Below, piece by piece: positions 1,415 to 33,860 of a stretch of 34,009 bases of DNA; positions within the stretch are counted from its first letter, which is position 1, and the number at the start of each line of letters is the position of its first letter. The DNA lies in the NCBI GenBank assembly GCA_031288735.1, contig JAITQU010000095.1, forward strand, positions 1 to 34,009, in the 5' to 3' direction. A model generated the notes under the pieces. That model searched no databases. It had not been told where the DNA came from and saw nothing but the letters and a program-made list of their open reading frames with translations. The DNA is from Christensenellaceae bacterium. GTDB lineage: Bacteria > Bacillota > Clostridia > Christensenellales > DTU072. The position numbers and the translations under genes are program-made.

Positions 1415-4039
1415 ATGTCATTACCAAAGCATTTCGATCCTGCTTCTTTCGAGAATGCAATTTACAAAAATTGGGAGGATAAGGGTTATTTCACACCAGA
1501 GATAACAACAGATAAATCACCGTTTTGTGTTGTAATTCCGCCACCTAATATTACTGGGCAGCTTCATATGGGACATGCACTAAATAGCACACTGCAGGAC
1601 ATTATAATAAGACATAAGCGCATGCAAGGCTTTGCAACACTGTGGTTGCCAGGCACTGATCATGCAAGTATAGCGACAGAAACAAAGATAGTAGGAAAAT
1701 TAAAGGAGGAAGGATTATCAAAGGCAGATGTTGGGCGTGATGCATTCTTAGAGCGTGCTTTCAAATGGAAGGATCAATACGGAAGGCTCATTGTTGATCA
1801 ACTTAAAAGACTAGGCAGTTCCTGTGACTGGTCACGAGAAGCATTCACAATGGATGAAAAATGCTCAAAAGCGGTAAAGGATGCATTCGTAAGATTATAT
1901 CATAAAAAAATGATTTATCGTGGCAAACGAATGATAAATTGGTGTCCGTGTTGTAAAACGGCACTATCAGATGCAGAAGTAGATTACAGCGCAGAAAATT
2001 CCTATTTATGGTATATAAATTATCCATTTGTCGATGATAGCGGCTTTGTAACTGTAGCAACAACTCGACCAGAAACTATTCTAGGAGATGTAGCCGTTGC
2101 GGTGAATCCTGAGGACCCTAAATATAAGGAGGTCATAGGAAAGCATCTTAAATTACCACTAACAAGCAAGACGATACCAATAATTGCTGATAATTATGTT
2201 GAAATTGAATTTGGTACAGGTGCAGTTAAAATCACACCAGCACATGATCCTAACGATTTTGAAGTAGGTTTAAGACATAAACTTCAACTAGTTAATGTAA
2301 TGGATGATGCTGGCTATATGAATAACAATGCAAATGAGTATGCTGGCATGAATAGATTTGAGGCTCGTGAGAAAATTGTAACGGATTTAGAAAAGCAGGG
2401 ACTACTCGAAAAAATCGAACCCTATACTCATAATGTAGGTCATTGTTCAAGGTGTGACAGTGTAGTTGAGCCTAGAGCAAGTTTGCAATGGTTTGTAAAA
2501 ATGCAAGCACTTGCAAAGCCTGCAATAAGAGTAGTCAAAGAAAGGAAAATAGTGTTTATTCCAGATAGATTTTCTAATGTCTACTTAAATTGGATGAACA
2601 ACATAAAAGATTGGTGCATCAGTAGACAATTGTGGTGGGGGCATAGAATCCCTGCATGGTATTGTACTGAATGTAATAATATTATAGTAGATGCTAATAC
2701 ACCAACGCATTGTAGTAAATGTGGTTGCACAAATTTAATACAGGATGAGGATGTGCTGGATACATGGTTTAGCAGTGCACTCTGGCCATTCTCGACACTA
2801 GGTTATCCAGAAATGACGGCGGATTTAAAATATTTCTATCCCACTAATGTCTTAGTTACAGGGTATGACATAATATTTTTCTGGGTAGCACGAATGATTT
2901 TTTCTGGGATAGAGCATATGGGTGAAATCCCATTCCCTGAAGTCTTAATTCATGGACTTGTTAGAGATGCTGACGGTAAGAAAATGTCCAAATCTGCAGG
3001 CAATGGCGTAGATCCAATAGAGATAATTGATCGATTTGGTGCCGACACACTGCGGTTTAATATATGTACTGGAATGGCACCAGGTGCTGATATTCGTTAT
3101 AGCGAAGAGAAAATAGAAAATTCAAGAAATTTTCTAAATAAATTATGGAACTCTGCAAGGTTTGTTCTAATGAATTCAGAAAACGTAAAGCTACCAGAAA
3201 TAGGAGAATTTTCGACAAACTCAGCAGATAAATGGATTCTATATAAGATGAATTCAGCAATTTCCGAGGTAAGTATCAATCTTAAAAAGTATGATATAGG
3301 TTTAGCTGGATTAAAATTGTATGATTTCATCTGGAGTGATTTTTGTGACTGGTATATAGAATTGTGTAAAGCAAATATCTACGGAAATGATGTTAAGGCT
3401 CGAGAAAGATCGCTTGCCGTTCTAATGTTTGTTTTGAAAAACATACTTAAACTCTTGCATCCATTTACTCCATTCATAACAGAGCGAATATGGCAGGAAG
3501 TTGGTGAGAATAGAACAATCATGCTAACAAAGTATCCTTCTAATAATTCAAAGTTTTCCTATTTAAAAGATTTTAAACGTTTCGAATCTATTAAAGAAAT
3601 AATCCGAGCTGTTCGCAATATCCGTGCCGAGTATGATGTTGCACCATCTAAGACGTTAAGTCTATTTATCTTGTCAAATGAAAAAATATATATAAAAAAG
3701 AATTTGCAGTTTATAAACAAACTAGCCAACATTTTAAATGTAACCTTTATCGCTGACAAGGGAGAAATAACCGAAAAAACAGTTGGTGTCTCTTTGGACG
3801 GTATTGAACTCTATGTTCCGCTAGGCGAAATAGTGAGCTTTGAAAAAGAGATAACACGATTAAATAAAGAAATTCAAAAGGTCAAAGAGGAAATATCGAG
3901 AAGTGAGAAATTATTAAACACTCAAGGATTTGTAGCTAAGGCGCCTAAAAATCTAATTAGCCAAGAGACAGAAAAATTGAAAATTAATCGAGAGCTCTGT
4001 TTTAAGCTTGAGTCTCGTGTCAGCGAAATGAGTAAGTGA
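1415..4039 (+). CDS. valS: Valine--tRNA ligase
   Basis: PPPNITGQLHMGH (HIGH), DWCISRQLWWGHRIP, KMSKS and a C-terminal coiled coil. GGAG at 1402-1405 suggests a start at ATG 1415. Confidence 0.97.
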   Translation: MSLPKHFDPASFENAIYKNWEDKGYFTPEITTDKSPFCVVIPPPNITGQLHMGHALNSTLQDIIIRHKRMQGFATLWLPGTDHASIATETKIVGKLKEEGLSKADVGRDAFLERAFKWKDQYGRLIVDQLKRLGSSCDWSREAFTMDEKCSKAVKDAFVRLYHKKMIYRGKRMINWCPCCKTALSDAEVDYSAENSYLWYINYPFVDDSGFVTVATTRPETILGDVAVAVNPEDPKYKEVIGKHLKLPLTSKTIPIIADNYVEIEFGTGAVKITPAHDPNDFEVGLRHKLQLVNVMDDAGYMNNNANEYAGMNRFEAREKIVTDLEKQGLLEKIEPYTHNVGHCSRCDSVVEPRASLQWFVKMQALAKPAIRVVKERKIVFIPDRFSNVYLNWMNNIKDWCISRQLWWGHRIPAWYCTECNNIIVDANTPTHCSKCGCTNLIQDEDVLDTWFSSALWPFSTLGYPEMTADLKYFYPTNVLVTGYDIIFFWVARMIFSGIEHMGEIPFPEVLIHGLVRDADGKKMSKSAGNGVDPIEIIDRFGADTLRFNICTGMAPGADIRYSEEKIENSRNFLNKLWNSARFVLMNSENVKLPEIGEFSTNSADKWILYKMNSAISEVSINLKKYDIGLAGLKLYDFIWSDFCDWYIELCKANIYGNDVKARERSLAVLMFVLKNILKLLHPFTPFITERIWQEVGENRTIMLTKYPSNNSKFSYLKDFKRFESIKEIIRAVRNIRAEYDVAPSKTLSLFILSNEKIYIKKNLQFINKLANILNVTFIADKGEITEKTVGVSLDGIELYVPLGEIVSFEKEITRLNKEIQKVKEEISRSEKLLNTQGFVAKAPKNLISQETEKLKINRELCFKLESRVSEMSK

Positions 4040-10431: not shown

Positions 10432-11325
10432 ATGAAAAAAGGCAAGTTCTATGCTGTAAGGAAGGGACATCAAAAAGGAATATTCTACAAATGGGAGGAT
10501 TGCCTAAATGCCACGAACGGCTTTTCGGGTGCTGAGTACAAGTCGTTTGTCACCGAGGAAGAGGCTGACGCTTTCCTTAATTATGTTGATAATGTTGATG
10601 AAAGTAATCGAAAATTTTATGCTGTAAAAAAAGGCATTCACAGAGGTGTATTCAAAACTTGGCCCGAATGTCAGCTAGCAATAAAAGGATATCTGCATCC
10701 TGAATACAAGTCGTTTAAAACCGAGATTGCTGCCAAAGCTTATTTGACAGGTAAGGATTTTATCTTCGAAAACGATATTTTTCCCAGGCTAAGTCTTGGA
10801 AAAATTTGTATCTATACTGATGGCAGTTTTGATAATGTAACTTTCTTTTACAGCTATGGTGCTGTTATTGTATTAAGTGACTCTGATACGATTGAATTGT
10901 GTGGCAAAGGAAATAATAATGAATTCCTAACGTCTAGGAATATAGCAGGTGAGGCTTTTGGTGTTATTGTAGCATTATGGTGGGCAATAAAAAACAAATA
11001 TGATAAAGTAAGCATCTTTCATGAATGTCCTAATCTAAGACAGTGGGCATCGGCGGAGTGGAGTGCTAAAACACCATTATCACTATATTTTCAAAATTTT
11101 ATCTGCCAGCTTAAAGACATAATTGACATCGAATTTGTTGAAACTAAAGGGCATTCAGATAACAAATATAATGAGATTGCTCATAATCTTAGTAGGTATG
11201 CATTCATAGAAGAAACGGATGATGTCTTAAGAGATAGTGATGGCTTTGGTATTAATGACATAAACGAAAATGAGCTTAAAGTATTACTAGAGGAGCTAAA
11301 AAAGAGCAAGCTTAGAAGTAAATAA
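10432..11325 (+). CDS. rnhA: Ribonuclease HI with two N-terminal hybrid-binding (viroplasmin/Cauli_VI) domains
   Basis: KFYAVRKG..W..C..F.GAEYKSF occurs twice in variant form, followed by an RNase H fold with YTDGS, RNIAGE and KGHS..YNE. Confidence 0.85.
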   Translation: MKKGKFYAVRKGHQKGIFYKWEDCLNATNGFSGAEYKSFVTEEEADAFLNYVDNVDESNRKFYAVKKGIHRGVFKTWPECQLAIKGYLHPEYKSFKTEIAAKAYLTGKDFIFENDIFPRLSLGKICIYTDGSFDNVTFFYSYGAVIVLSDSDTIELCGKGNNNEFLTSRNIAGEAFGVIVALWWAIKNKYDKVSIFHECPNLRQWASAEWSAKTPLSLYFQNFICQLKDIIDIEFVETKGHSDNKYNEIAHNLSRYAFIEETDDVLRDSDGFGINDINENELKVLLEELKKSKLRSK

Positions 11326-13880: not shown

Positions 13881-14357
13881 ATGGAGTCGTTAATTGCAGG
13901 CTTTGCACAAGCTCGATATAACTTAATGGATCAGAATGGAGAGCCATTAGTTAAATTAAACAAAATCATAAATTGGGACGTTTTTAGAGAGATTATTGAA
14001 AAGGCAATACATAGAGAAACAACTAATGTAGGTAGGCCACCATACGACTCACTATTAATGTTTAAAATTATTAATCTTCAGAAGTGGTATACACTCTCAG
14101 ATGCTGGTGCACAGAATGCAATATGCAACCGTTTGGATTTCACTCGCTTTTTAGGACTAGATATTCACGATAAAATACCTGATGCTGCAACAATATGGGA
14201 GTTTAAAAAAACACTTAAAGCACTTGGTGTCTATGATGAGTTGTTTGATATGCTTGATAAAATGATAAAGGAAGCCGGCATCGTTGCACATAAAGGTTGT
14301 ATAGTGGATGCAACGTTTGTAATGATTCCTAAAAGACAAAGTAAGAAAAAAATTTAA
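13881..14357 (+). pseudogene. Truncated IS5-family transposase (DUF772-type N-terminus)
   Basis: PLVKLNKIINWD, GRPPYD.LLMFK, LSD, PDAATIW and IVDATFV (first DDE Asp). The ORF ends just afterwards, so the rest of the DDE domain is missing. Confidence 0.85.
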
Positions 14358-20508: not shown

Positions 20509-21543
20509 GTGAATATGGAAAGACACTCAGAGCTACAGGTCAATGAGCGTATCAAAGCTGATTATCTTGATTACGAAGATAAATTTTTATCACCACATGC
20601 AACCCGCAGTTCGAAAAGCTTAGGAAGACAAAATTTTCTAAGTCCATGTCCTCTTCGCACGGAATTTCAGCGCGACAGGGATAGAATTTTACACTGTAAA
20701 TCGTTTAGAAGACTTAAACACAAAACACAAGTCTTTTTGTCACCTAATGGTGACCATTATAGAACACGATTAACACACACACTTGAGGTTACGCAAATAG
20801 CGAGAACTCTATCACGAGCTTTAAGATTGAATGAGGATCTAACAGAGGCGATTGCTCTAGGACACGATCTAGGACATACTCCGTTTGGGCATGCTGGAGA
20901 AAAAGTTCTTAATAAATTGACTGGGCATTTCCGTCACAATGAGCAAAGCTTAAGAGTGGTAGAAAAATTAGAAAACGAAGGCAAGGGACTTAATTTAACA
21001 TTCGAAGTGCGAGATGGCATACTAAATCATTGTCTATCAACAACTCCAAATACACTCGAAGGAATGGTCGTTAATTTTTCAGATAGAATTGCATACATAA
21101 ATCACGATATAGATGATGCTATACGCGCAGGAGTAATTAAGGAATCAGATTTGCCACAAAACATTATTGAACTATTAGGAAACAAGCGTGGCAATATGAT
21201 TGATAAATTTGTGTCAGATATAGTCAATATGAGTTATGGAAATGATAAAGTAGTGCAGAGCGACCTATATAGAGATGCACTAATGCAACTAAGAAAATTC
21301 ATGTTTGATAGAGTTTATTTTTCAGAATCGGAGGCTAAGACTGAGGAAATAAAAGCGGATCGTTTAATAGAAGCTCTTTACAATTATTTTTTGATAAATC
21401 CACACGAAGTACCTGATGTATACAAAATACATGCAAAGGATACTGCTATATTCATAACTGACTACATTGCTGGGATGTCTGATACGTTTGCGATAAAAAC
21501 GTTTAGCGATCACTTTTTGCCACACGCATGGGAAGGTGTTTGA
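20509..21543 (+). CDS. dgt: Deoxyguanosinetriphosphate triphosphohydrolase (HD family)
   Basis: RTEFQRDRDRI, RRLKHKTQVF, RTRLTH, GHDLGHTPFGHAGE and DYIAGMSD motifs. Confidence 0.95.
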   Translation: MNMERHSELQVNERIKADYLDYEDKFLSPHATRSSKSLGRQNFLSPCPLRTEFQRDRDRILHCKSFRRLKHKTQVFLSPNGDHYRTRLTHTLEVTQIARTLSRALRLNEDLTEAIALGHDLGHTPFGHAGEKVLNKLTGHFRHNEQSLRVVEKLENEGKGLNLTFEVRDGILNHCLSTTPNTLEGMVVNFSDRIAYINHDIDDAIRAGVIKESDLPQNIIELLGNKRGNMIDKFVSDIVNMSYGNDKVVQSDLYRDALMQLRKFMFDRVYFSESEAKTEEIKADRLIEALYNYFLINPHEVPDVYKIHAKDTAIFITDYIAGMSDTFAIKTFSDHFLPHAWEGV

Positions 21544-23786
21544 TGGATTTTAATATTGATATGCTTAATAGTGCACAACGCTGTGCCGTTGAGGACACAG
21601 AAGGTCCAGTGCTAGTTCTAGCTGGGGCTGGCTCAGGAAAAACTCGTGTACTTACACATAGAGTAGCGCATCTTGTGATGTCTAAGGGGATTTCACAATA
21701 TAGAATATTAGCTATAACATTTACAAACAAGGCAACAAATGAAATGCGCGAAAGATTAAATAAAATGCTAGGCGAAGACAATCGCGTATTTGTTTCTACA
21801 TTTCATAGCCTTTGTTGTACTATTCTAAGAGATCAATGTACAAAATTAGGATACGATAGAAATTTTAGTATCCTTGACCAAAATGATGTTTTAAGAATAG
21901 TCAAGAAGTTGTTGCGAGAGTTTGACTATGATGATGATCTAAAACCCGAGACAGTAATAAATCATATTTCTAAGGCAAAAAGCAGGGGGCTAACACCAGC
22001 GCAGTATTTTATTGAGGATAATGATTTTGAATATAACCGAGAAATATTTGAGCTCTTTAATAATTATAATGAAACCTTACTACAACTAAACGCAATGGAT
22101 TTTGATGATTTATTGTATAAAACAGATGAGCTATTTAATAATTTCCCAGAGGCTTTAAGTAAATACCAGGAGCGATTTCAATACATACATGTTGATGAAT
22201 TTCAAGATACCAATGCAGTGCAGTTTGATATTGTAAAAAAACTGGCTGGTAAATATGGGAATTTGTTTGTTGTAGGTGATGATGATCAGAGTATCTATGG
22301 GTGGCGTGGATCTGTACTAGAAAATATTTTAAACTTTGACAAGATTTTTCCTGGAGCAAATGTGCACAAGCTTTTAAGAAATTATCGCTCGACCGAAAAA
22401 ATACTTGAAGCTGCAAATAATGTAATAAGTAACAACAAAGCTAGGCATGATAAAAATCTGTACACAGAGATTAAAATAGGTGATGATGTCGAATTTAGAA
22501 ATTTTTGGTCAGAGAGAAACGAAGCCGAATGGGTTATTGGAGAAATAGCGTCCTTGAAGCGAAGATTTAATTATTCATATAACGATTTCGCTATACTTAT
22601 ACGTGCTAGCTCGCTAAGTCGACATTTTGAAAATTGTTTTGCAGATTTAAGAATATCATATAATTTTTATGGTGGCCATAAGTTCTTTGATCGCGCAGAA
22701 ATTAAAAACTTGCTTGCATATTTAAGAATAATATGCAACCCTCGCGATGCTGTTGCTATAGAGCGAATAATCAACTTTCCGCACCGTGGTATAGGTGAGG
22801 TTTCTTTTAATAAATTAGTTAAATATGCTCAGGATAACTCGAAGGATCTATTGGAGGTTGTTTTTAACATTCAATCAGCAAACATATTAAGCGGGAAACC
22901 ATTAAAAGGTGTTTTGGATTTTGGCAATCTTATTTTAGACTTTACTACGCATAAGGATATGGACATATCTTCATTTGTCAAATATGTAGTGTCTAAAATA
23001 GGACTTGAGGAAGTCTACATGGCAATGAAAAAGGAAGACAAAGAGGACGATAAATGGGATAATATTAAGCAATTCTTGCAGCACGTTGAGGAATACAGTA
23101 ATGAGTATCCATCGTCAAGTATAGAGGAGTTTTTGCAATCAACAGTTTTAGCATCCGAAAGACATGGTGGGAATGTTGATGAATGTGAGTTTGCAACTAT
23201 CACTACTATGCATTCCGCAAAAGGCTTAGAATTTAAAGTAGTTTTCATAGTTGCTTGTGAGGAAGATATTTTCCCCTCATATCAGTCAAAAGAAAAAAAC
23301 AATGTTGAAGAGGAAAGAAGGTTGATGTATGTAGCTATCACGAGAGCACGGGAAAAACTATATATTACAAATGCTACAAGCCGTATGCGAGGTGATAATG
23401 TTGTCTATGCACTGCCGTCACGGTTTATAAGAGAAGCAAAAGGTGCAAGAAACGTTAACGCTTATGCTGAATATGCCAAAAAGCATAACATCATAAACGA
23501 AAGCATAACCAAAACACAAAGCGGAGTGGAAAGTTATAAAAAGACTGATACAACGAAAAATGAAATTTCAGTTCAACAAATAGTTAACTCATACAAGAAA
23601 ACTGATGTGCAAGAAAAAGATATTTTAAGCTTTACAAATGGCGCAAGAGTTAAACATCCTACTTATGGCGAAGGAAAAATAATTGTTGTGTATGGATCTG
23701 GAGCTGATATAACAGCAAGCGTACTATTTCAAGAATTAGGTGTTAAAAAATTTAAATTGGCAGTCGCGCCGTTAGAGCTAATATAA
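21543..23786 (+). CDS. pcrA: ATP-dependent DNA helicase PcrA/UvrD
   Basis: AGAGSGKT, TFTNKA, DEFQDTN, GDDDQSIYGWRG, NYRS, HSAKGLEF, YVAITRA and a C-terminal Tudor-like domain. ATG overlaps the dgt TGA. Confidence 0.95.
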   Translation: MDFNIDMLNSAQRCAVEDTEGPVLVLAGAGSGKTRVLTHRVAHLVMSKGISQYRILAITFTNKATNEMRERLNKMLGEDNRVFVSTFHSLCCTILRDQCTKLGYDRNFSILDQNDVLRIVKKLLREFDYDDDLKPETVINHISKAKSRGLTPAQYFIEDNDFEYNREIFELFNNYNETLLQLNAMDFDDLLYKTDELFNNFPEALSKYQERFQYIHVDEFQDTNAVQFDIVKKLAGKYGNLFVVGDDDQSIYGWRGSVLENILNFDKIFPGANVHKLLRNYRSTEKILEAANNVISNNKARHDKNLYTEIKIGDDVEFRNFWSERNEAEWVIGEIASLKRRFNYSYNDFAILIRASSLSRHFENCFADLRISYNFYGGHKFFDRAEIKNLLAYLRIICNPRDAVAIERIINFPHRGIGEVSFNKLVKYAQDNSKDLLEVVFNIQSANILSGKPLKGVLDFGNLILDFTTHKDMDISSFVKYVVSKIGLEEVYMAMKKEDKEDDKWDNIKQFLQHVEEYSNEYPSSSIEEFLQSTVLASERHGGNVDECEFATITTMHSAKGLEFKVVFIVACEEDIFPSYQSKEKNNVEEERRLMYVAITRAREKLYITNATSRMRGDNVVYALPSRFIREAKGARNVNAYAEYAKKHNIINESITKTQSGVESYKKTDTTKNEISVQQIVNSYKKTDVQEKDILSFTNGARVKHPTYGEGKIIVVYGSGADITASVLFQELGVKKFKLAVAPLELI

Positions 23787-23790
23787 TTTA

Positions 23791-24094
23791 GTGATACTCC
23801 CGTCGACTAACGCCTACGGCGTTTGAGTCGGTGTCTTCCTTGGAACTTCCCCTTACGGCAAGATGTTTACCAAGCTATCCCCGTGCGTCCCACGGTTCGA
23901 TGTAAAGCGCTATGAGGTCAGTAATCGAAGCCATTCGACGAATGATTATTACTATCCAAGTCCTCTCGAAAATCAGACCTCCTTAATATGCACTGATTCT
24001 ATCACAAATTCTCAAAGGGTCAATACAGGACGGTCGAACAAGGTGTGCCTTCATCTCACCGCCTATAGAGGCGGGAGACTTTTCACACATAAGG
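23791..24094 (-). mobile_element. ORF-less IS200/IS605 derivative (left end fused to right end/omega-RNA region)
   Basis: 23791..~23943 is homologous to 31365..~31524, and ~23942..24094 is homologous to ~32899..33053. Both subterminal hairpins and the terminal TCAC are retained. Confidence 0.9.
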
Positions 24095-24163
24095 GTAAAT
24101 TTAGTAAATTTGACATTTGCATTCTGTCCAAATCAAAAAAATAAAAATTACAAGAGGTATAAA

Positions 24164-27100
24164 ATGTATTCAATTGATAAGCCCAAAAAATTAAGTTATT
24201 TCATTAAAAGAATTAGTGCACTACCAATAAAAGATGAGAATGCAAAAAACTTTGCTAGTATCAGTAGAATGATGGAACTTATTGAGGAAATAAACAAGCA
24301 TAACGCTAGTTATTATGATAAAGATGCTCCTCTTGTTTCAGATGCGGAGTATGATAAACTTTATACTGAGCTTTCGAAACTAGAAAAAACCAAGCGTATT
24401 CAGTTTAAAAATTCGCCTACTTTGCGAGTTGGTGGAAAAATTCTTGACGGCTTTAAACCTTACCAGCATAGAAGCAAATTGTATTCACTAGATAAGGCAC
24501 AATCGTTTGACGAATTAGCTAATTTTTTTGAGCGCATTGGAAAGGATACGAAAAGCCCAAGTCAAGAGTTTGTAGTTGAATACAAGTTTGATGGACTTAC
24601 ACTGTCGCTAATCTATGATAAAGGGGAACTAGTTTTAGGTGCCACGCGTGGTGATGGTGAGGTTGGCGAAAATGTTACAGCGCAAGTAAAGACAATTGAT
24701 TCAATACCACTTAAGATCAAATACAAGGGTCGAGTTGAAATTCAAGGCGAGGCCATAATGAGACTTAGTGCTTTTAACAGATACAATAGTAGTGCAGCGG
24801 TTCCTTTAAAGAATCCTAGAAATGCGGCCGCTGGGGCTATTCGTAATATTGATCCTAAAAATACTGAAAAACGCAAACTATCATTTTTTGCCTACAATGT
24901 AAGCTACTGCGAATTAAATATCAACTCTCAGCTCGAAATGCTAGAGTTTCTTACTTCGAATGGTTTCTATGTGGAAAAACCGCTAGCAGTAGTTCATAAC
25001 ATTAGTGAAGCAAAAATCGTTTTAAATGATGTAGAGAGAGCACGCAAAAATTTAGATTTTTTAATTGACGGTGCTGTTTTAAAATTGAATCCAGTGGGCC
25101 CGCGTGCCAAAATTGGATACACTGAAAAATTTCCCAAGTGGTCGATTGCATATAAGTTTAAGGCAAGCGAGTTAACTACTACCTTGACTGCTGTAGTATG
25201 GAAGGTTTCTAGGACATCAAGAATAAATCCAGTAGCAGTTTTTGATCCAGTTAATTTTGATGGTGTAACTATACAGAACGCATCACTTAACAATATAGCT
25301 GACATTAAGAAAAAAGATTTAAAACTAAACAGTCGCATCCTGGTTCGGCGAGCAAATGATGTTATTCCACAAATTATGGGTGTTTGCACGCATACAGAGC
25401 AGAGCAAGGAAATTGAAATACCAAGAGTTTGCCCATCGTGTAATGCTAATGTCACAAGCGAAAGCGATTTCATATATTGCACAAATCCTGAAAATTGTCC
25501 AGAAACCATTATTGCTACTTTGGTGCATTTTGCCTCTGTATCGTGTATGGACATCAACGGTTTTAGTGAAAAAACTGCAGGATTAATATACAGAGAATTA
25601 AATGTAAGATCTATCGTAGATCTCTATAGGATTAAAGTAGCCGATCTCTTGAAACTTGATGGATTTAGCAATAAAGGTGCTACCAAGATGGTAAGTGCAA
25701 TAAATGAATCTAAAAAAGTCGCACTTTCAAAATTCATATATGCACTAGGCATTCCTGGCATAGGTGGAAAAGCGGCAAAGGACCTAGCGCAAAAATACAA
25801 ATCAACAAGTGGTTTATTGAAAGCAGAATACGGTGAGCTCCTTAGTCTTGACAAGTTTGGTGAAAAGTCCGCAAATAACTTTATTGAGTACATTTCTAAT
25901 GAGAAAAACCGTATTGCAATTGAAAAACTGTCTTGCCTAGGCATTTGCGCTAACACTGATGCTAATGAAACAAAAATTGACTTCATTAAATGGCTAACCC
26001 ATTTTGGATCTGAGAGTTGCATGAATATTTTTGCGCTGACTGAGGAAATGGCTAAGCTTCTATACGAAAGAGTGGATGTTAGAACAATCGTTGACATATA
26101 CAGATTAAAGGAAACTGATTTCTGGAAAATTTCTGAGATAAATAGCGAAAATTTGAAAAGAATGCTTAAATCAATAGAGGAATCTAAAAACACTACGCTT
26201 GATAGATTTATACGCTCCTTTAAAATATTAGGAGTAGGAGAAATGGAGTCAAAGATTTTATCAAATCATTATGGTTCTATAGATAATTTATTTGACACCT
26301 GGTTTGATGAGTTAGCTAACTGTGGCGAGTTTAACAACGAAACAGTTAATAGCATTATGCAATTTGTTTCTAACGAAAACAATCGTTTGTGCATCAAAAG
26401 ATTATTAGCTCTAGGTGTTTGTCGTAACGTCAGCGGTAATGAAAAAGATGGAAGTCTTTCTTTCGAATGTCTAGAGCGATTTGGATCTCGGTTAGGTATG
26501 AATATTAAAGGATTCAATAAAAAGACAATAGAATTAATCTTGAAGTCAAACATAAAGAGTTTCGACGAATTATATACTCTCTCTATTGAGGATCTTAAAA
26601 AAATTGATGGCATTACCGAAACAAGTGCTAAAGCACTAGTTGATGCCATTAAAGAATCAAAAAATGCATCGCTTGCGCAATTCATTTATGCGCTAGGGAT
26701 ATTTGGAATAAAAGAAAAAGAGTCTAATATCTTGGCACAAAGGTATGGGACTTTAGACAATTTCGTCAATGCTTGGTTTGATGAATTAATAAAATTAGAA
26801 ATATTTAATGAGGATGAGATAGTTAATTTGATGAAATATATTTCTACTCCGTCCAATCGTTTGACTATTAAGAACCTTCAAACATTAGGAATTTGCAATA
26901 CAGAAATAACAACAACGCTAAAAGACTTCGTCTGGCAGATTATGCCAGATTCAAAGCTTACAGCAATAGGAATATTTGACAGCATTGAAGTAGGAGGGAA
27001 AAAAGTAGAGTTTGCCGCAATATCAGAAATTGACATGGAGAATATTGATATCAGAGTTGGTGATTTAGTCACTGTTAAGTGTTTTGGTGATAGTTATAAA

Positions 27101-27250
27101 ATAACTAGTAGTCAAAGGCAGACAGAAGATGCTACAAAAATTATGGCACCAAGGGTATGCCCATATTGTGGTGCTCCCTTAAAAACTGTCAATCAGGATA
27201 TGTATTGCACAAATTCTGAAAACTGCAAATCCAAAAGCTTTTCAGGTTAG
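24164..27250 (+). CDS. ligA: NAD-dependent DNA ligase with expanded C-terminus (3x HhH block, second OB+Zn finger, no BRCT)
   Basis: YYDKDAPLVSDAEYD, KFDG adenylation lysine, TRGDGEVGENVT, NPRNAAAG, DGAVLK and a C4 Zn finger. GAGG precedes ATG 24164. Confidence 0.93.
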   Translation: MYSIDKPKKLSYFIKRISALPIKDENAKNFASISRMMELIEEINKHNASYYDKDAPLVSDAEYDKLYTELSKLEKTKRIQFKNSPTLRVGGKILDGFKPYQHRSKLYSLDKAQSFDELANFFERIGKDTKSPSQEFVVEYKFDGLTLSLIYDKGELVLGATRGDGEVGENVTAQVKTIDSIPLKIKYKGRVEIQGEAIMRLSAFNRYNSSAAVPLKNPRNAAAGAIRNIDPKNTEKRKLSFFAYNVSYCELNINSQLEMLEFLTSNGFYVEKPLAVVHNISEAKIVLNDVERARKNLDFLIDGAVLKLNPVGPRAKIGYTEKFPKWSIAYKFKASELTTTLTAVVWKVSRTSRINPVAVFDPVNFDGVTIQNASLNNIADIKKKDLKLNSRILVRRANDVIPQIMGVCTHTEQSKEIEIPRVCPSCNANVTSESDFIYCTNPENCPETIIATLVHFASVSCMDINGFSEKTAGLIYRELNVRSIVDLYRIKVADLLKLDGFSNKGATKMVSAINESKKVALSKFIYALGIPGIGGKAAKDLAQKYKSTSGLLKAEYGELLSLDKFGEKSANNFIEYISNEKNRIAIEKLSCLGICANTDANETKIDFIKWLTHFGSESCMNIFALTEEMAKLLYERVDVRTIVDIYRLKETDFWKISEINSENLKRMLKSIEESKNTTLDRFIRSFKILGVGEMESKILSNHYGSIDNLFDTWFDELANCGEFNNETVNSIMQFVSNENNRLCIKRLLALGVCRNVSGNEKDGSLSFECLERFGSRLGMNIKGFNKKTIELILKSNIKSFDELYTLSIEDLKKIDGITETSAKALVDAIKESKNASLAQFIYALGIFGIKEKESNILAQRYGTLDNFVNAWFDELIKLEIFNEDEIVNLMKYISTPSNRLTIKNLQTLGICNTEITTTLKDFVWQIMPDSKLTAIGIFDSIEVGGKKVEFAAISEIDMENIDIRVGDLVTVKCFGDSYKITSSQRQTEDATKIMAPRVCPYCGAPLKTVNQDMYCTNSENCKSKSFSG

Positions 27251-27358: not shown

Positions 27359-27388
27359 AAAAGGAGCGATATCCTCGCTCCTTTTTTT
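27359..27388. terminator. Bidirectional intrinsic terminator between convergent ligA and ATPase genes
   Basis: AAAAGGAGCGA-TATCC-TCGCTCCTTTTTTT: a perfect stem with T tracts on both strands. Confidence 0.88.
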
Positions 27389-27400
27389 ACACAATAATTT

Positions 27401-29248
27401 TTATTCTGACAGCCTAATAAGATCTCTCCAGATTTTTGTCCAGCTATCAACATACCTGTATGGAATATGGACATCCTTATAAAACGACATAACATTAATC
27501 TTTGTGCGCTTTGCAATCTCGTAGCGGAAGTTTTTTGGTAACTCTATATTCTTAGACTGAGCATGCTCAAATATTTGCACCATGAGACTCTTACTTTGAG
27601 AAAAAGAGAATTTTTCATTGTCGCTCTCTATGTTTTTATCTAAAACCTCGGATATATATAATCTAGAAGACACTTCGACATAATTTATCGGCATTATATC
27701 TTCAATATAAGTAGCACCCTTTAGATAATCAGAAAGGGATTTAACCTTTTCAGGTGAGGCCTTGTATTTACCTTCTAAAAGTCGCTTTTTTATTTCATTC
27801 CCTTCACTATCAGATGCTAAAAGAATGGCTGGTAGGTCTGCACCATCACTAAACATTGCACATATTGAATCAATACCCGATTTTCCAGTGGAAAACACTA
27901 GAGTTTGATATATTGTATTAAGTTTTCCCTTTGAAATTAAAATATTTTTTATAAGTGATAGGTAGGATTCATCCTCCTCATTTAGTACTATTATAGGAAG
28001 ACAGCCTGCTAGAGACTTCTCAGCAACATATAGCCCTAGTGAGGATTGGACTGGGAAAATTGAGAGCTCGTTACTTCGCTCGTCATTGATTACTAAATCA
28101 TGACTTATTATTGTATGTCCAGAGTCATCTTTAAAAACGATCCTTACATTGTTCATATACTTAACAGGAATCATATACGATGAATGGGTATTGTATAAAA
28201 CCTGCGCGCATTCCCCTGCTTTCAAGAAATACTCAGCTAGCTTTCGTTGCGTTATTGAATGCATTGCCGCACCAGCTTCGTCAAACATGAGTACTGTATG
28301 ATGATCATTTTTTGACATAAGGCCAGTGATTGAGAAAGTAAGGAAGTGTGCAAAAAAGCGCCTAAAGCCAGTGCTTCGATTTTCTAGGTTATAAAGCTTT
28401 CCAGTTTTGCGGTCGATTATTTTTATAGTTATTCCTCTATCATAGCTTTCAAACCCTATTGAAGTATCGTCTTTACCCCAGCATTCTAAAAACTGTTCGT
28501 TTAGTCTTTCGAACCCACGCTTAATACGATTATGGAAGAGAGGGACCAATTCGAGCACCCTGCGAAAATCAAGTGATTTGACATCAACCTTTAATTTCTC
28601 GCAAGCCTCGGATATGGATTTTTCAAGATTATTTTCCCAAATATCTAAGCAGTTTAGAAGTCGGCGAAACCGTCTTTCATCGGCGGTTAAAACGTTATCA
28701 CTAAGCTTTCCACTTAATTTGTCCACTAAGGTTAAAAGATCAATATTACTTGACGCTTCTGTAACCTCATGGAAGTATTGAAATCTTGGCATTGCTAGTA
28801 AAATTTCAGTCTCAACACTTTTTTTAATGTCAACTGGCATATCGCTAGTTAAGCTAATTTCATAGTTGCCACTATAAGTTCTTGCAATTACTAAGGAATC
28901 TTTTTTTACATAGTCTTTGTATATATCCTTGATTCGCATATTGAGCTTATCATCTATGCTAAGCTCTGCCCTTACAAATGTAGTGCTTTCAATGCGAGGT
29001 AATAACTCCTCAGCACGATCAATCGGGACGTCAGCCTTTAGATTAATTTCAGCTATGCGATAAATATCAGCACGGCTTGTACGTAGGATGTCGAGTCTGT
29101 TAGGTGGCATTATTTTCATAAGTGCAAAAAATAGCGTAGTTTTTCCCGACTCGTTGTCCCCTGCAAAAACCGTCACGTTTTCACAATCGATCCACCCACT
29201 GTCGATAATAGAACGGAAATCTGTTACTCTAAACTTAAGTAATCTCAT
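27401..29248 (-). CDS. OLD-family-like ABC ATPase with degenerate C-terminal TOPRIM domain
   Basis: DFRSI N-terminus, Walker A GDNESGKT, signature RSTGF, Walker B LMFDE and H-loop THS. The TOPRIM-like region reads IIVLNEED and LLASD. Confidence 0.8.
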   Translation of the reverse strand: MRLLKFRVTDFRSIIDSGWIDCENVTVFAGDNESGKTTLFFALMKIMPPNRLDILRTSRADIYRIAEINLKADVPIDRAEELLPRIESTTFVRAELSIDDKLNMRIKDIYKDYVKKDSLVIARTYSGNYEISLTSDMPVDIKKSVETEILLAMPRFQYFHEVTEASSNIDLLTLVDKLSGKLSDNVLTADERRFRRLLNCLDIWENNLEKSISEACEKLKVDVKSLDFRRVLELVPLFHNRIKRGFERLNEQFLECWGKDDTSIGFESYDRGITIKIIDRKTGKLYNLENRSTGFRRFFAHFLTFSITGLMSKNDHHTVLMFDEAGAAMHSITQRKLAEYFLKAGECAQVLYNTHSSYMIPVKYMNNVRIVFKDDSGHTIISHDLVINDERSNELSIFPVQSSLGLYVAEKSLAGCLPIIVLNEEDESYLSLIKNILISKGKLNTIYQTLVFSTGKSGIDSICAMFSDGADLPAILLASDSEGNEIKKRLLEGKYKASPEKVKSLSDYLKGATYIEDIMPINYVEVSSRLYISEVLDKNIESDNEKFSFSQSKSLMVQIFEHAQSKNIELPKNFRYEIAKRTKINVMSFYKDVHIPYRYVDSWTKIWRDLIRLSE

Positions 29249-30918
29249 GTTTTTTTACCACCTTTTCTTATTCTCTTAAACATAAGGAATTTATTGTTTT
29301 CGTCTGATATTGTACTATTACCTACTAGTCTTCTAATCGATGCTGCCTTTTTCATATTCGACAAAATCAACCATATGAATGCACCAATAGCACCTGCAGT
29401 CAAAATTGATAAACAGACTATCAGTGCGACATTAGGTTTATCTATCTCAAATGTTACACTGCTCTCATTACCAGCTAGATCGTAGACAAAAACAGTGTAA
29501 AAACCAGATTTTGTAAAGGTTATATTTCCTGCATCGTCAAATTTAGCATCTAGCTCACGTTCATTAAGAGTAACCTTTGAACTTGAAAGGTCTTTAACTG
29601 AAACTTTAACATTTTTGTTAAAGATCTTGACAGACTGAGATGTTACATCATTGTCTTGAACTATCAGCTTGAGCTCAGGGAGGGTGATGTCGAGATTTTT
29701 TACATCAACATAAAAATCATCAGAAACTTCCCCCGCTCCGCTCACCGCATAGAATCTGTATATGCCAGGTCGGAATATTTCCAATTGTGACTTAGTGTGC
29801 TCTACAGGAGGCTCACCCTCTATTGCATACCATACTTTGACACCGCTCGTGTTTCTGCTTGTGGTAATTTCAAGGGTGACCTTTTCCCTAGAAAGAATAG
29901 TTGGATCCCCTTTTTGCTTTACCTCTATTGTTGGGACTTCAGTGTCTACCCATGGGATAAACTTAAAAATATCGGCACTGGGTGCTACATACTCATAGGT
30001 CACACCAGAGCCACTAACGGCACCAAATTTAATTATATCATTATTGGTTTTAGGATATACTGAAATGACGCATTTTGTGTCTTCATCATCCTCCGCAAAT
30101 ACCTTATCTACACTATTTGCATCTAGTGACCACCAGTAACGTACGCCGGAAACAGGAATAGCATGGGCTAATATTACATAAGTAGCAACAGTGCCCCACA
30201 CCTGATTGTATCCCTTTTCAAACGGTGCTACAACAGTGAATGCTGGGATCTCTGTATCAATTTTAGTAGCCTTGTATACAGCATCCCTCACTGCACCAGT
30301 ATTACTTGTTATAGTAACGATGTAGTTACCATTTTCATTAACAGCAAATTCAGTTACTCCAGGCGAGATTACGGTTGGTGTGGACGTAGGATCTGTTATT
30401 ACAACGGTATATCCTACATAAGACACACCTAGGTTAAATCCTACTTGGTATGAGGTTTGAAAATAAGATTCTGGCTCTATAAAACTTGTGATTTCTGGAG
30501 CTGAATCTATAAAAATTTTATGCTCATATGAAGACTCGGCTACAGTGATGCCATCCCCGTTCACCATTCTAAAGGATATCGATGCGTTTTTTACAGTCTC
30601 ATATATAGTGACACTGCTGGCATTTTCAGGAAAGTCTATCCAGGTTGGGGCATCTATTTGCTCTGACTCAACAAGACTGTACTGAAACCTATGGCCTACT
30701 TTAAGAGGTGAGGTTAGCGTAAATGTGTATGAGTTGTAATAGACAACCCCCCCTGCATGAGCACCACTGCCTCCACCTGCGCCCTCGATAGTTATTGAAT
30801 CTAAAGCATCAGCGTTTGCCTGTCCATTATTTGCAAATAGTATCGAAAAAAACATGCAGAAAGCAAGTATTGCTATAACTGGTAGCAAATAAATGAGGCG
30901 TTTTACTAGCTTTTCCAT
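29245..30918 (-). CDS. Secreted, C-terminally membrane-anchored protein with tandem Ig-like repeats
   Basis: GGAGG precedes ATG 30918; signal peptide ends in ANA; repeated (I/V/L)DxxxP linkers and GxYxxxxxxxAG strands (e.g. GFYTVFVYDLAGNES); C-terminal TM helix and basic tail. Confidence 0.8.
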   Translation of the reverse strand: MEKLVKRLIYLLPVIAILAFCMFFSILFANNGQANADALDSITIEGAGGGSGAHAGGVVYYNSYTFTLTSPLKVGHRFQYSLVESEQIDAPTWIDFPENASSVTIYETVKNASISFRMVNGDGITVAESSYEHKIFIDSAPEITSFIEPESYFQTSYQVGFNLGVSYVGYTVVITDPTSTPTVISPGVTEFAVNENGNYIVTITSNTGAVRDAVYKATKIDTEIPAFTVVAPFEKGYNQVWGTVATYVILAHAIPVSGVRYWWSLDANSVDKVFAEDDEDTKCVISVYPKTNNDIIKFGAVSGSGVTYEYVAPSADIFKFIPWVDTEVPTIEVKQKGDPTILSREKVTLEITTSRNTSGVKVWYAIEGEPPVEHTKSQLEIFRPGIYRFYAVSGAGEVSDDFYVDVKNLDITLPELKLIVQDNDVTSQSVKIFNKNVKVSVKDLSSSKVTLNERELDAKFDDAGNITFTKSGFYTVFVYDLAGNESSVTFEIDKPNVALIVCLSILTAGAIGAFIWLILSNMKKAASIRRLVGNSTISDENNKFLMFKRIRKGGKKT

Positions 30919-30946
30919 AAAACCTCCCGTTTTTTGACTATTAAGG

Positions 30947-31105
30947 ATATCTATTACCACACCGACACAAACTACCATGAGAGGCCACTATGAGTGCAGT
31001 AGCACATCTGGGAAGGTAGACTGTGTCGCTTTAATTTCGTTTATGTCAGCAAAAACTTACTATTCTAGCCTCAGGCAGGTTATATAGGTGGCAAGGTTAA
31101 GATAC
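30947..31105 (-). ncRNA. Candidate structured 5' leader RNA
   Basis: Nested complementary segments: 31088-31104 with 30948-30960, 31015-31028 with 30963-30976, and 30998-31003 with 30984-30989. It starts just after an extended -10. Confidence 0.4.
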
Positions 31106-31118: not shown

Positions 31119-31487
31119 TTAATTTAGGAGCGGTGGATTAGCAAATGTCTTAGCAGCTCAATCTTTTGACTATCAGCTAGTGACATCCACCATTGATAAG
31201 AAAGTTGTTTTTGCTTTTTCATTTTCCAATTTAGCGTAAATTGTAGTTATATTATATTAGAATCCACTGCCTCCTCTGCTCTGTTTCTAACTTTATCTCA
31301 AATTTTTCATTAGTATACTAACTAAGAATTTCTACCAACTCCCTTTATTACCTTGTCTGAGAGAGTGACGTACTCCCGCCGCCTAACGCCTACGGCGTTT
31401 GAGGCGGGGGCTTCTTGGGAACTCCCACTTGCGGCAGGATGTTTTACCAAGCTATCCCCCGTGCGTCCCACGGTTCGATGTAATGCG

Positions 31488-32539
31488 CTATGAGGTGAGT
31501 AATCGAAGCCCTTCGCGCCGAATGTTGCGTGCTAGTTTGATGTCTCTATGATAATTGGCACCACAGCTTTCGCATGTCCACGACAATCGCTTAATGTCAG
31601 TCTGTCGTTGACATAGCCACATACATGACACAGTTTACTTGACGGAAACCACTTATCAATCGTCAAGGAACTTTCCACGTTTCGTCAACTTGTATCCGAG
31701 GAAACCTAAACATTCCAAAGCCGTGTCAGATACGCTTTTTTGAAAATTCAGAGATTGCGCCATTCCCCGCATATTTAAGTCCTCAATGCATACAGCATCG
31801 TATCGTTCTATCCGTCCCCTCTGCTGACGCAGGAAGTCTTTACGTTGAGCGAGATATGCGTGGAATCCGCAACTTTTTCCGCTGCTTTGCTCTATTCTTG
31901 CCACTTTTCTTGCGGCGGGATAACTTGCGTTGTTCTGGCGAGTTTTTATGCGATCGCAGGTAAAATCGTGCTACGCGGCTGTCGCCATTGATGCCCACGT
32001 AGTTGGGCATCGAAAAATCCAACCCCAGAACATTTACAGTCTTAATGGGTTCAACGGTCATTTCATGCTCGTAGAGTATGGATGCGTGATACTTTCTAGA
32101 CGGAGCCGTGACACTGCCTGATTTCAACTTGTAATCAGCGGGAATGCCGATGCTGTTTTACACTGACACGTCCTAACTTCGGGAGTTTCAAGTAACTTGC
32201 GAGCTCTATGTTCCCGAAAGCAAGGTTTGTCGTATAACTGTTGTGCCCTTTGTGCTTACTTTTGAACCGTGGAAAGCCTATTGATTTATCACAAGAAATT
32301 TTTGAAAGCCGCTTCTAGATGTAACTGCGCTTCGACAGTGCGAGTGAATCCACTTCCCTCAGCCACTCAAACTCGGTTTTGTATTGCGCAGGCGTTGCAG
32401 AACGACTCCTTAGTGGAGTCATAACGTAATTTTATCTCAGAGCCTACGGTTATAGACAAATCGGCACACTCAAAAGTTTTTGAAAACAGCTCGCACTGTG
32501 CGTTTGTTGGCGCAAGTCTCATCGAAACGCTTTATTCAT
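31488..32539 (-). pseudogene. tnpB: TnpB RNA-guided nuclease pseudogene, heavily frameshifted
   Basis: Fragments in different frames: MNKAF.., FSKTF, KYHASILYE, VLGLDFSM (RuvC I), QRKLSRRKK, CIEDLNMRGM (RuvC II) and [18 protein letters not shown] (RuvC III). Confidence 0.9.
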
Positions 32540-32922
32540 ATGCATTTTCCTTGGCTTTTATGTATCGTTTAATTACTTCTATAGGAGCACCGAAGCGCAA
32601 ACAAACAAAAGCTCGGGCTTCAAAAATATTTTTTCCAAAGACTTTTGTGTATTCGCGGGAACTCTTTTTTTACAATGCGGATACTTTGCTTCTTTTTGCG
32701 TTGATAAATTTGCTGATCTCCGCTTTTGTCTCAGCCCTGAAAAGTATGCATGGTCCGTGTCGTGATTCCACTGCTAAGGGTGATTTTGTAGACTGGAGAT
32801 ATAGTCAAAGATTTCTTTTAGCCGTGCTGACGTTGCATCGAATGACACTCAGTCGATACTTTACAACAAGCACAAGGTGATAGCACATCTTGAAGCACAT
32901 GATTATTACTATCCAAGTCCAC
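32536..32922 (-). pseudogene. tnpA: IS200-type Y1 HUH transposase pseudogene
   Basis: Fragments across frames: DLDSNNH, YHLVLVVKYR, RLKEIFDYI, WNHDTDH, ISKFINA, KKEFP and GAPIEVIKRYI. Confidence 0.88.
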
Positions 32923-33053
32923 TCGAAAATCAGCACTCCCTTATGTGCACTGATTCTATCACAAATTCTCCGAAGCGTCAATATAGGACGGTCGAACAAG
33001 GTGTGTGATTCATTTCACCGCCTATAGAGGCGGGAGACTTTTCACACATAAGG

Positions 33054-33366
33054 TTAAAATGAATAAATACCACCTGCTAAGTCAAATGTTAAGGCATATT
33101 CGATAGTTTGCGCTTCATTATTTGCATAGAGTGTCATGTTATAGATTGTGCTACCAAACAAAAATGCGTTCTTTTAGAGTTGATCTTTGCTTTGTAGCTC
33201 ACTATTGAAATTGAAGATATAACTAGTCGGAGCGACATTATCAGTAGTGTTAAATAATAGGAGCGTCAACAATGGAACCATATTCATAACAGAACGAATA
33301 ATTGAAAGAGATATTGGCTAAGTAAAGTTGTTGATTTTCTAGATGGATAGAGTGTAACTGTAACAT
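33054..33366 (-). pseudogene. Remnant of a repeat-containing surface protein gene (InlB B-repeat-like)
   Basis: Broken frames give YEYGSIVDAP, PTSYIF, NMTLYA and EYALTFDLAGG. A similar TTIYAKL fragment lies near 31230-31255, on the other side of the IS. Confidence 0.3.
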
Positions 33367-33718
33367 TGTTGATCGTTGATAAATCAGATCTTTATATGCA
33401 ATGCAATCACCCTCAATATTATCGCTACACTTTTAGCAGACTATTAGATTATAGTAGTTCTTTTGAATATGCTAGACTCAGTGATTTCGATATGCCGTAT
33501 GTGCGCTCAGAGTTAGACATCTCTTCCCCTACTATTATAGCACTATTTGTAGGCTTTTTTTCATATTTTATAAGATATTTTATAAGTGGCCATTGAGCAA
33601 GAAATGTAATATCAGTTGATTATTTTTCACACGCTATATGATATTTGGCTAAAACGTCACAGCTTCAGCGAATAAACCCGTCTTTAGAGTTTTTCACCAT
33701 TTTGTTTAGTTTCTTCTT

Positions 33719-33860
33719 GGGAGTGTATATTAATTTGTGTAAATCGGGGAGGAGGAGGTATAATAAAAACACAAATTAGGAGGACACCCAATTTGGAACT
33801 TAAACTGTATATAATTTTCATCTTTTTTGTATACTTACACACACAAAATAGCGAAGAGCC
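33719..33860 (+). mobile_element. 142-bp IS remnant/MITE (IS256-like left end; right end IS256- or ISL3-like)
   Basis: Starts GGGAGTGTATATTAATTTGTGTAAA (shared with 4468, - strand), then TATAAT and AGGAGG with no ORF. The other end reads GGCTCTTCGCTATTTTGTGTG on -. Flanks TTTCTTCTT/TTTTTTCTT match 8/9 but are low complexity. Confidence 0.5.

Follow-up and report, generated by a model that had tools for sequence, protein, structure and literature searches.

The bacterial members of the OLD family of ATPases that have been characterized are anti-phage proteins (PMC10568477, PMC12392090). The archaeal family member Cran1 does not serve in defense; it is an active nickase connected with chromatin and with the cell cycle (PMC12796447), and the Toprim domain of YbjD is dispensable (PMC13261556). 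Large proteins with Flg_new repeats have been noted in Clostridia (bioRxiv 10.1101/2023.11.21.568195). Here we describe a locus in which an OLD-family ATPase gene (gene 2) directly follows that for a membrane-anchored surface protein (gene 1). The window that we analyzed is a complete contig of 34,009 bp (C230; GenBank JAITQU010000095.1) in the 2.57-Mb genome (264 contigs, 85% complete) of a Christensenellaceae bacterium. Judged from sequence comparisons, this pair makes up the conserved core of a so far undescribed surface-protein cassette, which usually takes the form of a trio. The parts of the cassette are as follows.

29245..30918, minus strand: gene 1, 557 amino acids (aa); predicted type I membrane protein that has a signal peptide and contains five immunoglobulin (Ig)-like beta-sandwich domains (AlphaFold2, or AF2, model; Foldseek; Atlas)
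29359..29430, minus strand: predicted transmembrane (TM) helix of gene 1, residues 497-520 (AF2 model, tail alignment)
29248..29358, minus strand: conserved basic, putatively cytoplasmic tail of gene 1, residues 521-557 (alignment of relatives)
27401..29248, minus strand: gene 2, 615 aa; OLD-family ATP-binding cassette (ABC) ATPase with a degenerate TOPRIM domain (Pfam, PADLOC, alignment, AF2, Foldseek)
28019..29248, minus strand: ATPase head and helical insertion of gene 2, residues ~1-410 (invariant columns; Z of 18-20 to SMC, Rad50 and PtuA heads over model residues 1-409)
27401..28018, minus strand: OLD-like TOPRIM-fold domain and C-terminal helices of gene 2, residues ~411-615 (alignment; Atlas structure match)
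27359..27385, minus strand: terminator-like hairpin, 16 nt past the ATPase stop codon (fold test against shuffles)

The pairing of the two genes is conserved. Five ATPase paralogues are carried by this genome, including the copy in the window; three are 81-83% identical to that copy and one is 59% identical. An Ig-protein gene lies immediately upstream of the ATPase gene in all five, and the association extends to loci of the wider clade, so that the pair passes the gene-neighborhood check proposed in a preliminary description of this DNA. The gene 1 homologues at the paralogues are 46-50% identical to it, except that the fifth matches at ~34% over the C-terminal third.

That description had called the pair a two-gene system, and here it stands in part: the pairing is conserved, but a giant gene is first in the operon in three of the four other in-genome copies and in three of five orthologous loci from metagenome-assembled genomes (MAGs). 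On contigs C75, C157, and C194, the giant open reading frame (ORF) encodes 3925, 3942, and at least 1631 aa, respectively, and ends inside the start of the gene 1 homologue, with which it overlaps. These giants contain 12-13 Listeria-Bacteroides (Flg_new) repeats, and those at MAG loci L001 and L004 contain 7-10. The giants at C75, C157, and C194 end in a TM helix and a short tail of the form KKRExLWK (KKREGLWKSR, KKRENLWKSH). The complete trio of giant, Ig protein, and ATPase is present also at MAG loci L001, L004, and L012. A two-gene form without a giant occurs at C171 in this genome and at L002 and L003; it is syntenic across two genera, and its flanks are what we take, from our own reading of the sequences, to be aldo-keto reductase and cation-efflux-like genes.

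In the sister genus, a hybrid histidine kinase gene (~1180 aa; CHASE4-PAS-HisKA-HATPase-REC) lies 3' of the cassette on the same strand at L001, L004, and L012. We considered it as a part of the system and rejected it, because it is absent beside the in-genome copies. A phage or mobile-element origin of the cassette was likewise set aside: neither gene 1 nor the giant protein has a PHROGs match, and no integrase or transposase other than TnpB-type debris appears among the listed ORFs or the Pfam matches of the cassette loci.

Within the window, the ORF containing gene 1 extends over 29245..30978 (minus strand). The Met codon at 30918, taken as the start, is preceded by GGGAGG and gives the 557-aa protein. 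The junction of the genes reads ...AAAGGTGGTAAAAAAACATGAGA, in which the gene 2 start codon (ATG) and the gene 1 stop codon (TGA) overlap within ATGA. The start of gene 2 is preceded by AAGGTGG, a Shine-Dalgarno sequence that lies within the last codons of the gene 1 tail. Beyond gene 2, the hairpin at ~27385-27359 has an 11-bp stem and a free energy of -16.8 kcal/mol (z of -4.9; 0 of 200 shuffles as stable), although a simple terminator scan did not list it. Thus, the ATGA overlap and the single shared terminator reported earlier are both present. An A-run precedes the hairpin and a U-run follows (sequence after the hairpin, UUUUAUUU), so that it could double as a terminator for the convergent ligA gene.

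The protein encoded by gene 2 has the Walker A, Walker B, signature-like, and H-loop motifs of OLD-family ATPases. As the preliminary description had asserted, these motifs are intact: G30, N32, G35, and K36 of Walker A, RSTG at 291-294, D323 and E324 of Walker B, and H355 are invariant in 30 aligned homologues. The protein matches Pfam AAA_15 (E = 1.1e-11; 45.4 bits against a cut-off of 32.1), and the PADLOC models AbiLi, AriA, PtuA, GajA, and Old match it in the ATPase part only (E = 8.5e-11 for AriA and 9.8e-11 for PtuA). By sequence, its best relative of solved structure is the Class 1 OLD protein of Thermus scotoductus (Ts OLD; 6p74, E = 8.8e-11). When the AF2 model (predicted local distance difference test, pLDDT, of 87.6) was searched with Foldseek, PtuA, Ts OLD, and GajA were matched at E values of ~1e-11 to 1e-12, with PtuA at the top (8eea, E = 3.1e-12). 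A VIA structure comparison used the complete gene 2 model, and the ATPase head dominated its matches; the head aligns with the SMC, Rad50, and PtuA heads at the Z scores given above, and the model aligns with a Class 1 OLD fold over residues 2-615 at a Z of 17.5, though with a root-mean-square deviation of 15.5 over 348 residues.

Evidence for a TOPRIM fold in the C-terminal 220 residues comes from other sources. The gene 2 protein itself has no Pfam TOPRIM match, and a profile of the canonical C-terminal domain gave no match to PDB sequences at E values up to 10. Since that profile search was empty, the assignment rests on a column-for-column alignment with relatives that carry VEGxSDQ...DxD motifs, on the distant homologues P0045 and P0049, which pass the Pfam OLD-like_TOPRIM cut-off, and on the Atlas. 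There, residues 402-611 match a cluster model named "OLD family endonuclease" with a template-modeling score of 0.80, and 23 of 30 feature matches lie in clusters bearing PF20469.

The same alignment reveals how the nuclease motifs deviate. Relatives at 27-30% identity read VEGxSDQ...DxD...E-x-ED where the window protein reads VLNEEDE...ASD...Y-I-ED; the two TOPRIM motifs of the latter are IIVLNEEDESYL (residues 419-430) and ILLASDSEG (475-483). L422 stands in place of the catalytic Glu and A478 in place of the first Asp of DxD, and D480 is kept. We surveyed these positions in 79 genome loci: 14 closest loci, 62 distant loci with a readable C-terminus, and three that are cut short. In all 14 of the closest loci, the Glu is replaced by L, M, V, or T and the first DxD Asp by A, S, P, G, or T, such that none keeps both residues; by comparison, both the Glu and DxD are kept in 58 of the 62 distant loci. 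The departure from VEG..D and DxD that had been pointed out for the window copy is therefore a property of its close group. D426 (four residues after the Glu position), E516, and D517 are invariant, and the first residue of the E-x-E-D motif is Y, F, or K in the close group.

In Ts OLD, metal A is held by E377, D431, and D433 and metal B by D381, S478, and E480 (PMC7049728). With gene 2 residues mapped to these by motif spacing through the canonical relatives, rather than by structural superposition, two of the three metal-A ligands are replaced. The alignments show the predicted nuclease site of the gene 2 clade to be degenerate. The stronger term "nuclease-dead" used in the preliminary description is likely to be right, but metal-B-type residues remain, and the triple metal-A mutant of Ts OLD, which loses activity 12-15-fold, still nicks DNA (PMC7049728).

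The AF2 model of gene 1 (pLDDT of 79, from an alignment of 10 relatives) consists of an N-terminal helix (residues 3-28), five beta-sandwich units (~43-137, 143-217, 226-310, 331-406, and 415-492), a helix starting at residue 497, and a C-terminus that is disordered. We read the N-terminal helix, which is followed by ANA-DA, as a signal peptide. Foldseek returned only generic arrays of Ig and FN3 domains, and Atlas matches are to bacterial Ig-like clusters (Big_13, Big_3_3, and BiPBP_C) at 0.89-0.91. No Pfam cut-off is reached, and the protein has no significant Pfam, NCBIfam, PADLOC, or PHROGs family. Tandem beta-sandwich domains combined with an export signal are as expected of a bacterial Ig-like surface protein, and the model and Foldseek agree with the signal peptide, approximately five Ig-like units, and single TM segment proposed earlier. 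Gene 1 is thus a predicted type I membrane protein with a basic cytoplasmic tail. This tail was correctly described as basic and cytoplasmic, but it is 37 aa long (residues 521-557) rather than about 38.

The tail has the core ...SIRRLV..ST.SD..NKFLMFKRIRKG and is better conserved than the rest of the protein. Averaged over all pairs of 10 Ig proteins, identity rises from 34% for the ectodomain and 35% for the TM segment to 53% for the tail and 68% for its core (residues 539-554). When gene 1 is compared with its three closest in-genome paralogues, the tails are 83-91% identical and the ectodomains 43-45%. The motif is kept across genera, and related tail motifs occur in distant subclades with unrelated ectodomains; a second motif, KKYGMKR(R/H).SSF(L/M)D.F, is common to the upstream proteins of another subclade. 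Such strong conservation fits a cytoplasmic partner, and the earlier proposal of a repurposed cytoplasmic partner agrees with it. A complex prediction for the ATPase with gene 1 residues 519-557, run without controls, returned "no answer" with a score of 0.00, which is evidence neither way.

In a FastTree phylogeny of 92 rows, a branch whose SH-like support is 100% separates the degenerate ATPases from the others; four ATPase fragments of less than 480 aa were left out of the tree, as were three duplicates and two metagenome copies that are partial. The taxon-labeled rows of the degenerate group are all Bacillota and the loci are mostly from termite guts; canonical members come from many phyla. 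Among 1.84 billion representatives of a clustering at 50%, approximately a dozen belong to the clade. The ATPase was searched for in 61 related genomes and occurs in four, namely this one and all three that represent a single sister genus; the remaining 57 gave no match.

We inspected 32 loci of the degenerate clade: five from this genome, 13 from species genomes, and 14 nonduplicate termite-gut metagenome loci. A gene for a secreted or membrane-anchored protein is adjacent, upstream or downstream, in 25 of the 32, although for several neighbors the label "surface protein" rests on a hydropathy heuristic only. A profile of the Ig protein matches a neighbor in L103, L104, L112, L111, L013, L101, and L102 (E = 1e-43 to 5e-5); some of these neighbors are upstream, and others are downstream proteins that range from at least 755 aa to over 2300 aa, several being cut by the contig end. 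In the subclade with the second tail motif, we read the upstream proteins as Flg_new-type from an FxGW count and from repeats that end in "TLYAIW"-like sequence; the sole protein of that subclade that was tested, at L010, has no Pfam family. Partner type and gene order follow the ATPase subclades in the tree. At L005 (1244-2917), a single-pass membrane protein with a C-terminal LuxR/GerE helix-turn-helix domain is encoded upstream of an Flg_new protein and the ATPase.

The canonical relatives have different neighborhoods. At 34 canonical loci we examined 42 neighbor proteins, of which 19, at 17 loci, are restriction, helicase, or other defense or mobile-element types. They include HpaII, BsuBI/PstI, and AlwI endonucleases, Eco57I/MmeI-type enzymes, type I S and R subunits, an Mrr-helicase-methylase fusion, two Schlafen AlbA_2 proteins, RES, two UvrD-like proteins, YhcG, RhuM, T5orf172, TniQ, and IS66. 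None of the 42 is an Flg_new or Ig surface protein, and a 1962-aa neighbor at L025 has no hydrophobic segment. By contrast, the cassette in the window adjoins ligA, not defense genes.

Upstream of gene 1, the window copy is decayed, and three further features lie there.

30906..30950, minus strand: relic of the 3' end of the giant gene, last 14 codons (paralogue tail comparison; tblastn match 30944-30909)
31365..33060, minus strand: decayed TnpB-type insertion element, ~1.7 kb (blastn family matches; PF07282 match)
33060..33616, minus strand: internal relics of the giant gene in broken frames (tblastn with the giants of this genome)

The 14 codons before and across the gene 1 start read, in another frame, ISLIVKKREVLWKS followed by a stop; further stop codons lie just upstream, and the overlap resembles that of the intact paralogues. 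The relics at 33616-33060 match residues ~3481-3678 (~200 codons) of the 3925-aa paralogue, with tblastn E values of 5.7e-10 and 2.9e-10 at 33616/33619-33458/33470 and weaker collinear pieces at 33291-33060. Own-genome giants gave these matches, whereas the MAG giant and downstream proteins had no tblastn match to the window at an E value of 1e-3. Between the relics, and hence within the former giant gene, sits the element at 31365-33060, 450 bp upstream of gene 1. Its family has 143 blastn matches on 93 contigs of this genome at ~83-90% identity. A match to PF07282, the TnpB zinc ribbon, at 31521-31703 (minus strand; 26.6 bits) contains three internal stops, and 27 of 28 PF07282 matches genome-wide contain internal stops. 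The TnpB-type element evidently spread through the genome and then decayed, and the window copy of the cassette has lost its giant gene to it. The two remaining genes had rightly been described as intact amid decaying DNA, but it was missed that this decay had removed the first gene of the operon. The element ends of ~160 nt (31365-31524 and 32899-33059) are found also as many solo copies, one of which, at 23942-24109, is just upstream of ligA.

We favor, at about even confidence, the hypothesis that a defense-type ATPase-nuclease has been reused as a non-nucleolytic cytoplasmic partner of surface proteins. The ancestor of the ATPase would have been a stand-alone defense-type OLD nuclease, put to a new use without nuclease chemistry. 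The ATPase would dock on the conserved basic tails of its cognate surface proteins, and ATP-driven engagement of the heads, as in other ABC/SMC-type heads, would link or latch these tails. Thereby, the cell might organize, anchor, or switch an adhesin-like surface complex from inside, for which fast-diverging ectodomains and five copies would offer several binding specificities. More speculatively, the former active site, which is if anything more acidic (NEEDE, SDSEG, IED), could receive the KRIRKGGKK tail. If the link between tail and ATPase is real, then an immune ATPase can be reused as a membrane-proximal switch or scaffold, and the cassette would provide a handle on the giant adhesins of gut Firmicutes, which are almost unstudied. 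An entire clade appears to have kept the ATPase and dropped key nuclease residues while tied to the cell surface, and it may thus serve as a natural experiment on what the OLD ATPase domain does without the nuclease. A bolder version seems unlikely to us: a nonimmune class of OLD ATPases in which a dead TOPRIM pocket docks the basic tails of giant adhesins and Ig-repeat co-receptors, giving ATP-controlled inside-out switching, clustering, or movement. If true, a Gram-positive gut bacterium would possess a counterpart of the cytoplasmic control of adhesion receptors.

Several observations weigh against reuse as a partner of surface proteins, as does the hydropathy-based labeling mentioned above. 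The ATPase may retain some metal binding or nicking, given that D426, D480, E516, and D517 persist. The likeness of the paralogues' tails may be due partly to gene conversion together with the adjacent ATPase gene, and the last tail codons are constrained also as the ribosome-binding site of gene 2. At L007, L008, and L100, where both flanks are readable, the ATPase gene has no surface-protein gene beside it; these three loci represent one syntenic place next to ribosomal-protein genes. At L011 (177-3518; 1113 aa; also present as representative P0053), the ATPase is fused to hemerythrin and YjbR-like domains. Because of these lone copies and the fusion, we conclude that the ATPase can exist without a surface partner. 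Approximately one fifth of the loci are short, poorly informative contigs; L009, L011, L097, and L098 are short or begin at a contig end. Finally, contact between tail and ATPase, and expression of the genes, are so far part of a predicted partnership, and the window copy, without a giant gene or a recognizable promoter, may be silent.

Other explanations were weighed against these same data. The module could be a surface-linked anti-phage or exclusion system in which the ectodomains are phage receptors, decoys, or sensors and the tail signals to the ATPase, so that infection is blocked without DNA cutting, for instance because incoming DNA is clamped at the membrane or because the ATPase triggers an effector whose gene lies elsewhere. 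The known functions of bacterial OLD proteins (PMC10568477, PMC12392090), the PADLOC matches to the ATPase part, and the restriction and defense genes often found beside canonical relatives are in its favor, and multi-copy, fast-diverging ectodomains with a patchy spread (four of 61 related genomes) resemble an arms race. However, the cassette has no effector, given that two of three metal-A ligands are gone and that no other enzyme gene is conserved in it; PADLOC is empty for gene 1; the genes beside the cassette are of the housekeeping kind; and one of its forms keeps its synteny across two genera. Giant Flg_new proteins, moreover, are generally considered adhesin-like. For the phage-detection role suggested in the preliminary description, we found no effector gene, defense-island context, or PADLOC system, and the ancestry of the ATPase is the sole pointer to it. 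On balance, we regard an anti-phage module as rather doubtful, although not by as much as the bolder version above.

Linkage might also exist without partnership: the ATPase would work by itself on nucleic acid, through leftover nicking activity or as an ABC clamp that binds DNA or RNA, and would travel along with surface-protein genes through block duplication. The persistence of metal-B-type residues and one DxD Asp, the nicking of plasmids by metal-A mutants of Ts OLD (PMC7049728), and the lone ATPases fit this possibility, and linkage must be partly inherited because the four closest paralogues form one clade. Nevertheless, adjacency recurs in other gene orders and with unrelated ectodomains across subclades with ATPase identities of 40-66%; translation of the two genes is coupled; and the tails are under far stronger constraint than the ectodomains. 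We consider mere co-travel the least probable of the explanations given here. A final proposal, compatible with any function of the intact copies, concerns the window alone: this copy would be a dying remnant, unexpressed after the loss of its giant gene and promoter. The reduction of the giant gene to relics and the decayed insertion sequence upstream accord with such a fate, and promoter-like sites are not enriched (14 found, compared with 15.0 expected from shuffles), with none recognizable for this copy. Yet both ORFs retain their full length and every conserved motif, and a giant-free two-gene form exists naturally at C171, L002, and L003, which makes a dying remnant improbable in our estimation. 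Reuse of the ATPase as a non-nucleolytic partner of surface proteins therefore continues to be the hypothesis that we favor.

The remainder of the contig is occupied by housekeeping genes, including valS, a teichoic-acid/LicD-type cluster, topoisomerase subunits, der, pcrA, and the convergent ligA. The sole public run that contains the contig is a termite-gut DNA metagenome, which may be its source; no RNA run is listed. Rfam and tRNA scans of the window gave no matches. The ligA gene (24110-27250, plus strand) encodes 1046 aa, and bacterial LigA is usually ~670 aa in size. In this protein, Pfam lists HHH_2 in three stretches, an additional HHH_5, and OB domains in two stretches, but no BRCT domain; it may have an internally duplicated C-terminal half. 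A 297-aa protein encoded at 10432-11325 (plus strand) has two N-terminal RNase H1-type (Cauli_VI) domains and no further Pfam match. A DUF772 transposase fragment (13881-14357, plus strand) lies between the genes of both type II topoisomerase subunits. A ~70-nt repeat at 33719-33790, with 90-98% identity on at least six other contigs, may be like a miniature inverted-repeat transposable element. The last ~112 bases of the contig (33893-34004) are the exact reverse complement of bases 1-112, which is probably an assembly artifact or a repeat at both ends.

No description of an Ig-protein/OLD-ATPase pairing was found in PADLOC or in literature on the OLD family, Toprim, and Listeria-Bacteroides repeats, which agrees with the earlier statement that no described system with this pairing is known. 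Among known systems, the Class 1 OLD proteins (P2 Old, Ts OLD, and Vibrio cholerae OLD) resemble gene 2 in being single chains of ~600 aa with an ABC ATPase, a helical insertion, and a C-terminal TOPRIM fold, and in having no UvrD-type helicase adjacent. They differ in that the metal-A Glu and first DxD Asp are replaced throughout the gene 2 clade, and in that gene 2 is translationally coupled to a membrane protein gene outside any defense island. In PARIS (AriA/AriB) and in Septu or retron PtuA-PtuB, an OLD-type ABC ATPase that itself does not cut holds a partner protein, as we propose here. Unlike those partners, which are cytoplasmic nucleases, the putative partner of gene 2 is a surface-exposed single-pass membrane protein, and no AriB-, PtuB-, or AbiLii-like nuclease gene lies beside gene 2 or in the five own-genome copies. 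Gabija (GajA-GajB) differs as well: the neighbors of gene 2 are the Ig protein and convergent ligA, and no GajB gene adjoins it. The pcrA gene (21528-23786) is on the opposite strand and within the pcrA-ligA housekeeping pair.

Mycoplasma mobile gliding, in which giant Gli surface proteins are driven by a cytoplasmic F1-like ATPase, provides an analogy only. There, too, giant membrane-anchored surface proteins are tied to a cytoplasmic ATPase, although the proteins and the ATPase class are unrelated to those of the cassette. The Flg_new giants of gut Clostridia have the repeat found in the first gene of intact cassettes (12-13 copies), and the passage on them describes no ATPase partner or conserved cytoplasmic tail (bioRxiv 10.1101/2023.11.21.568195). 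The paper on Cran1 reports 11 uncharacterized OLD clades (U1-U11), without neighborhood detail in its section 7 (PMC12796447). Gene 2 itself appears from its sequence to be a divergent OLD-family member that lacks the full set of metal-A ligands. Cran1 provides a precedent for an OLD lineage in a nonimmune cellular role, and gene 2 differs from it in that its nuclease site is degenerate and its predicted link is to the cell surface.

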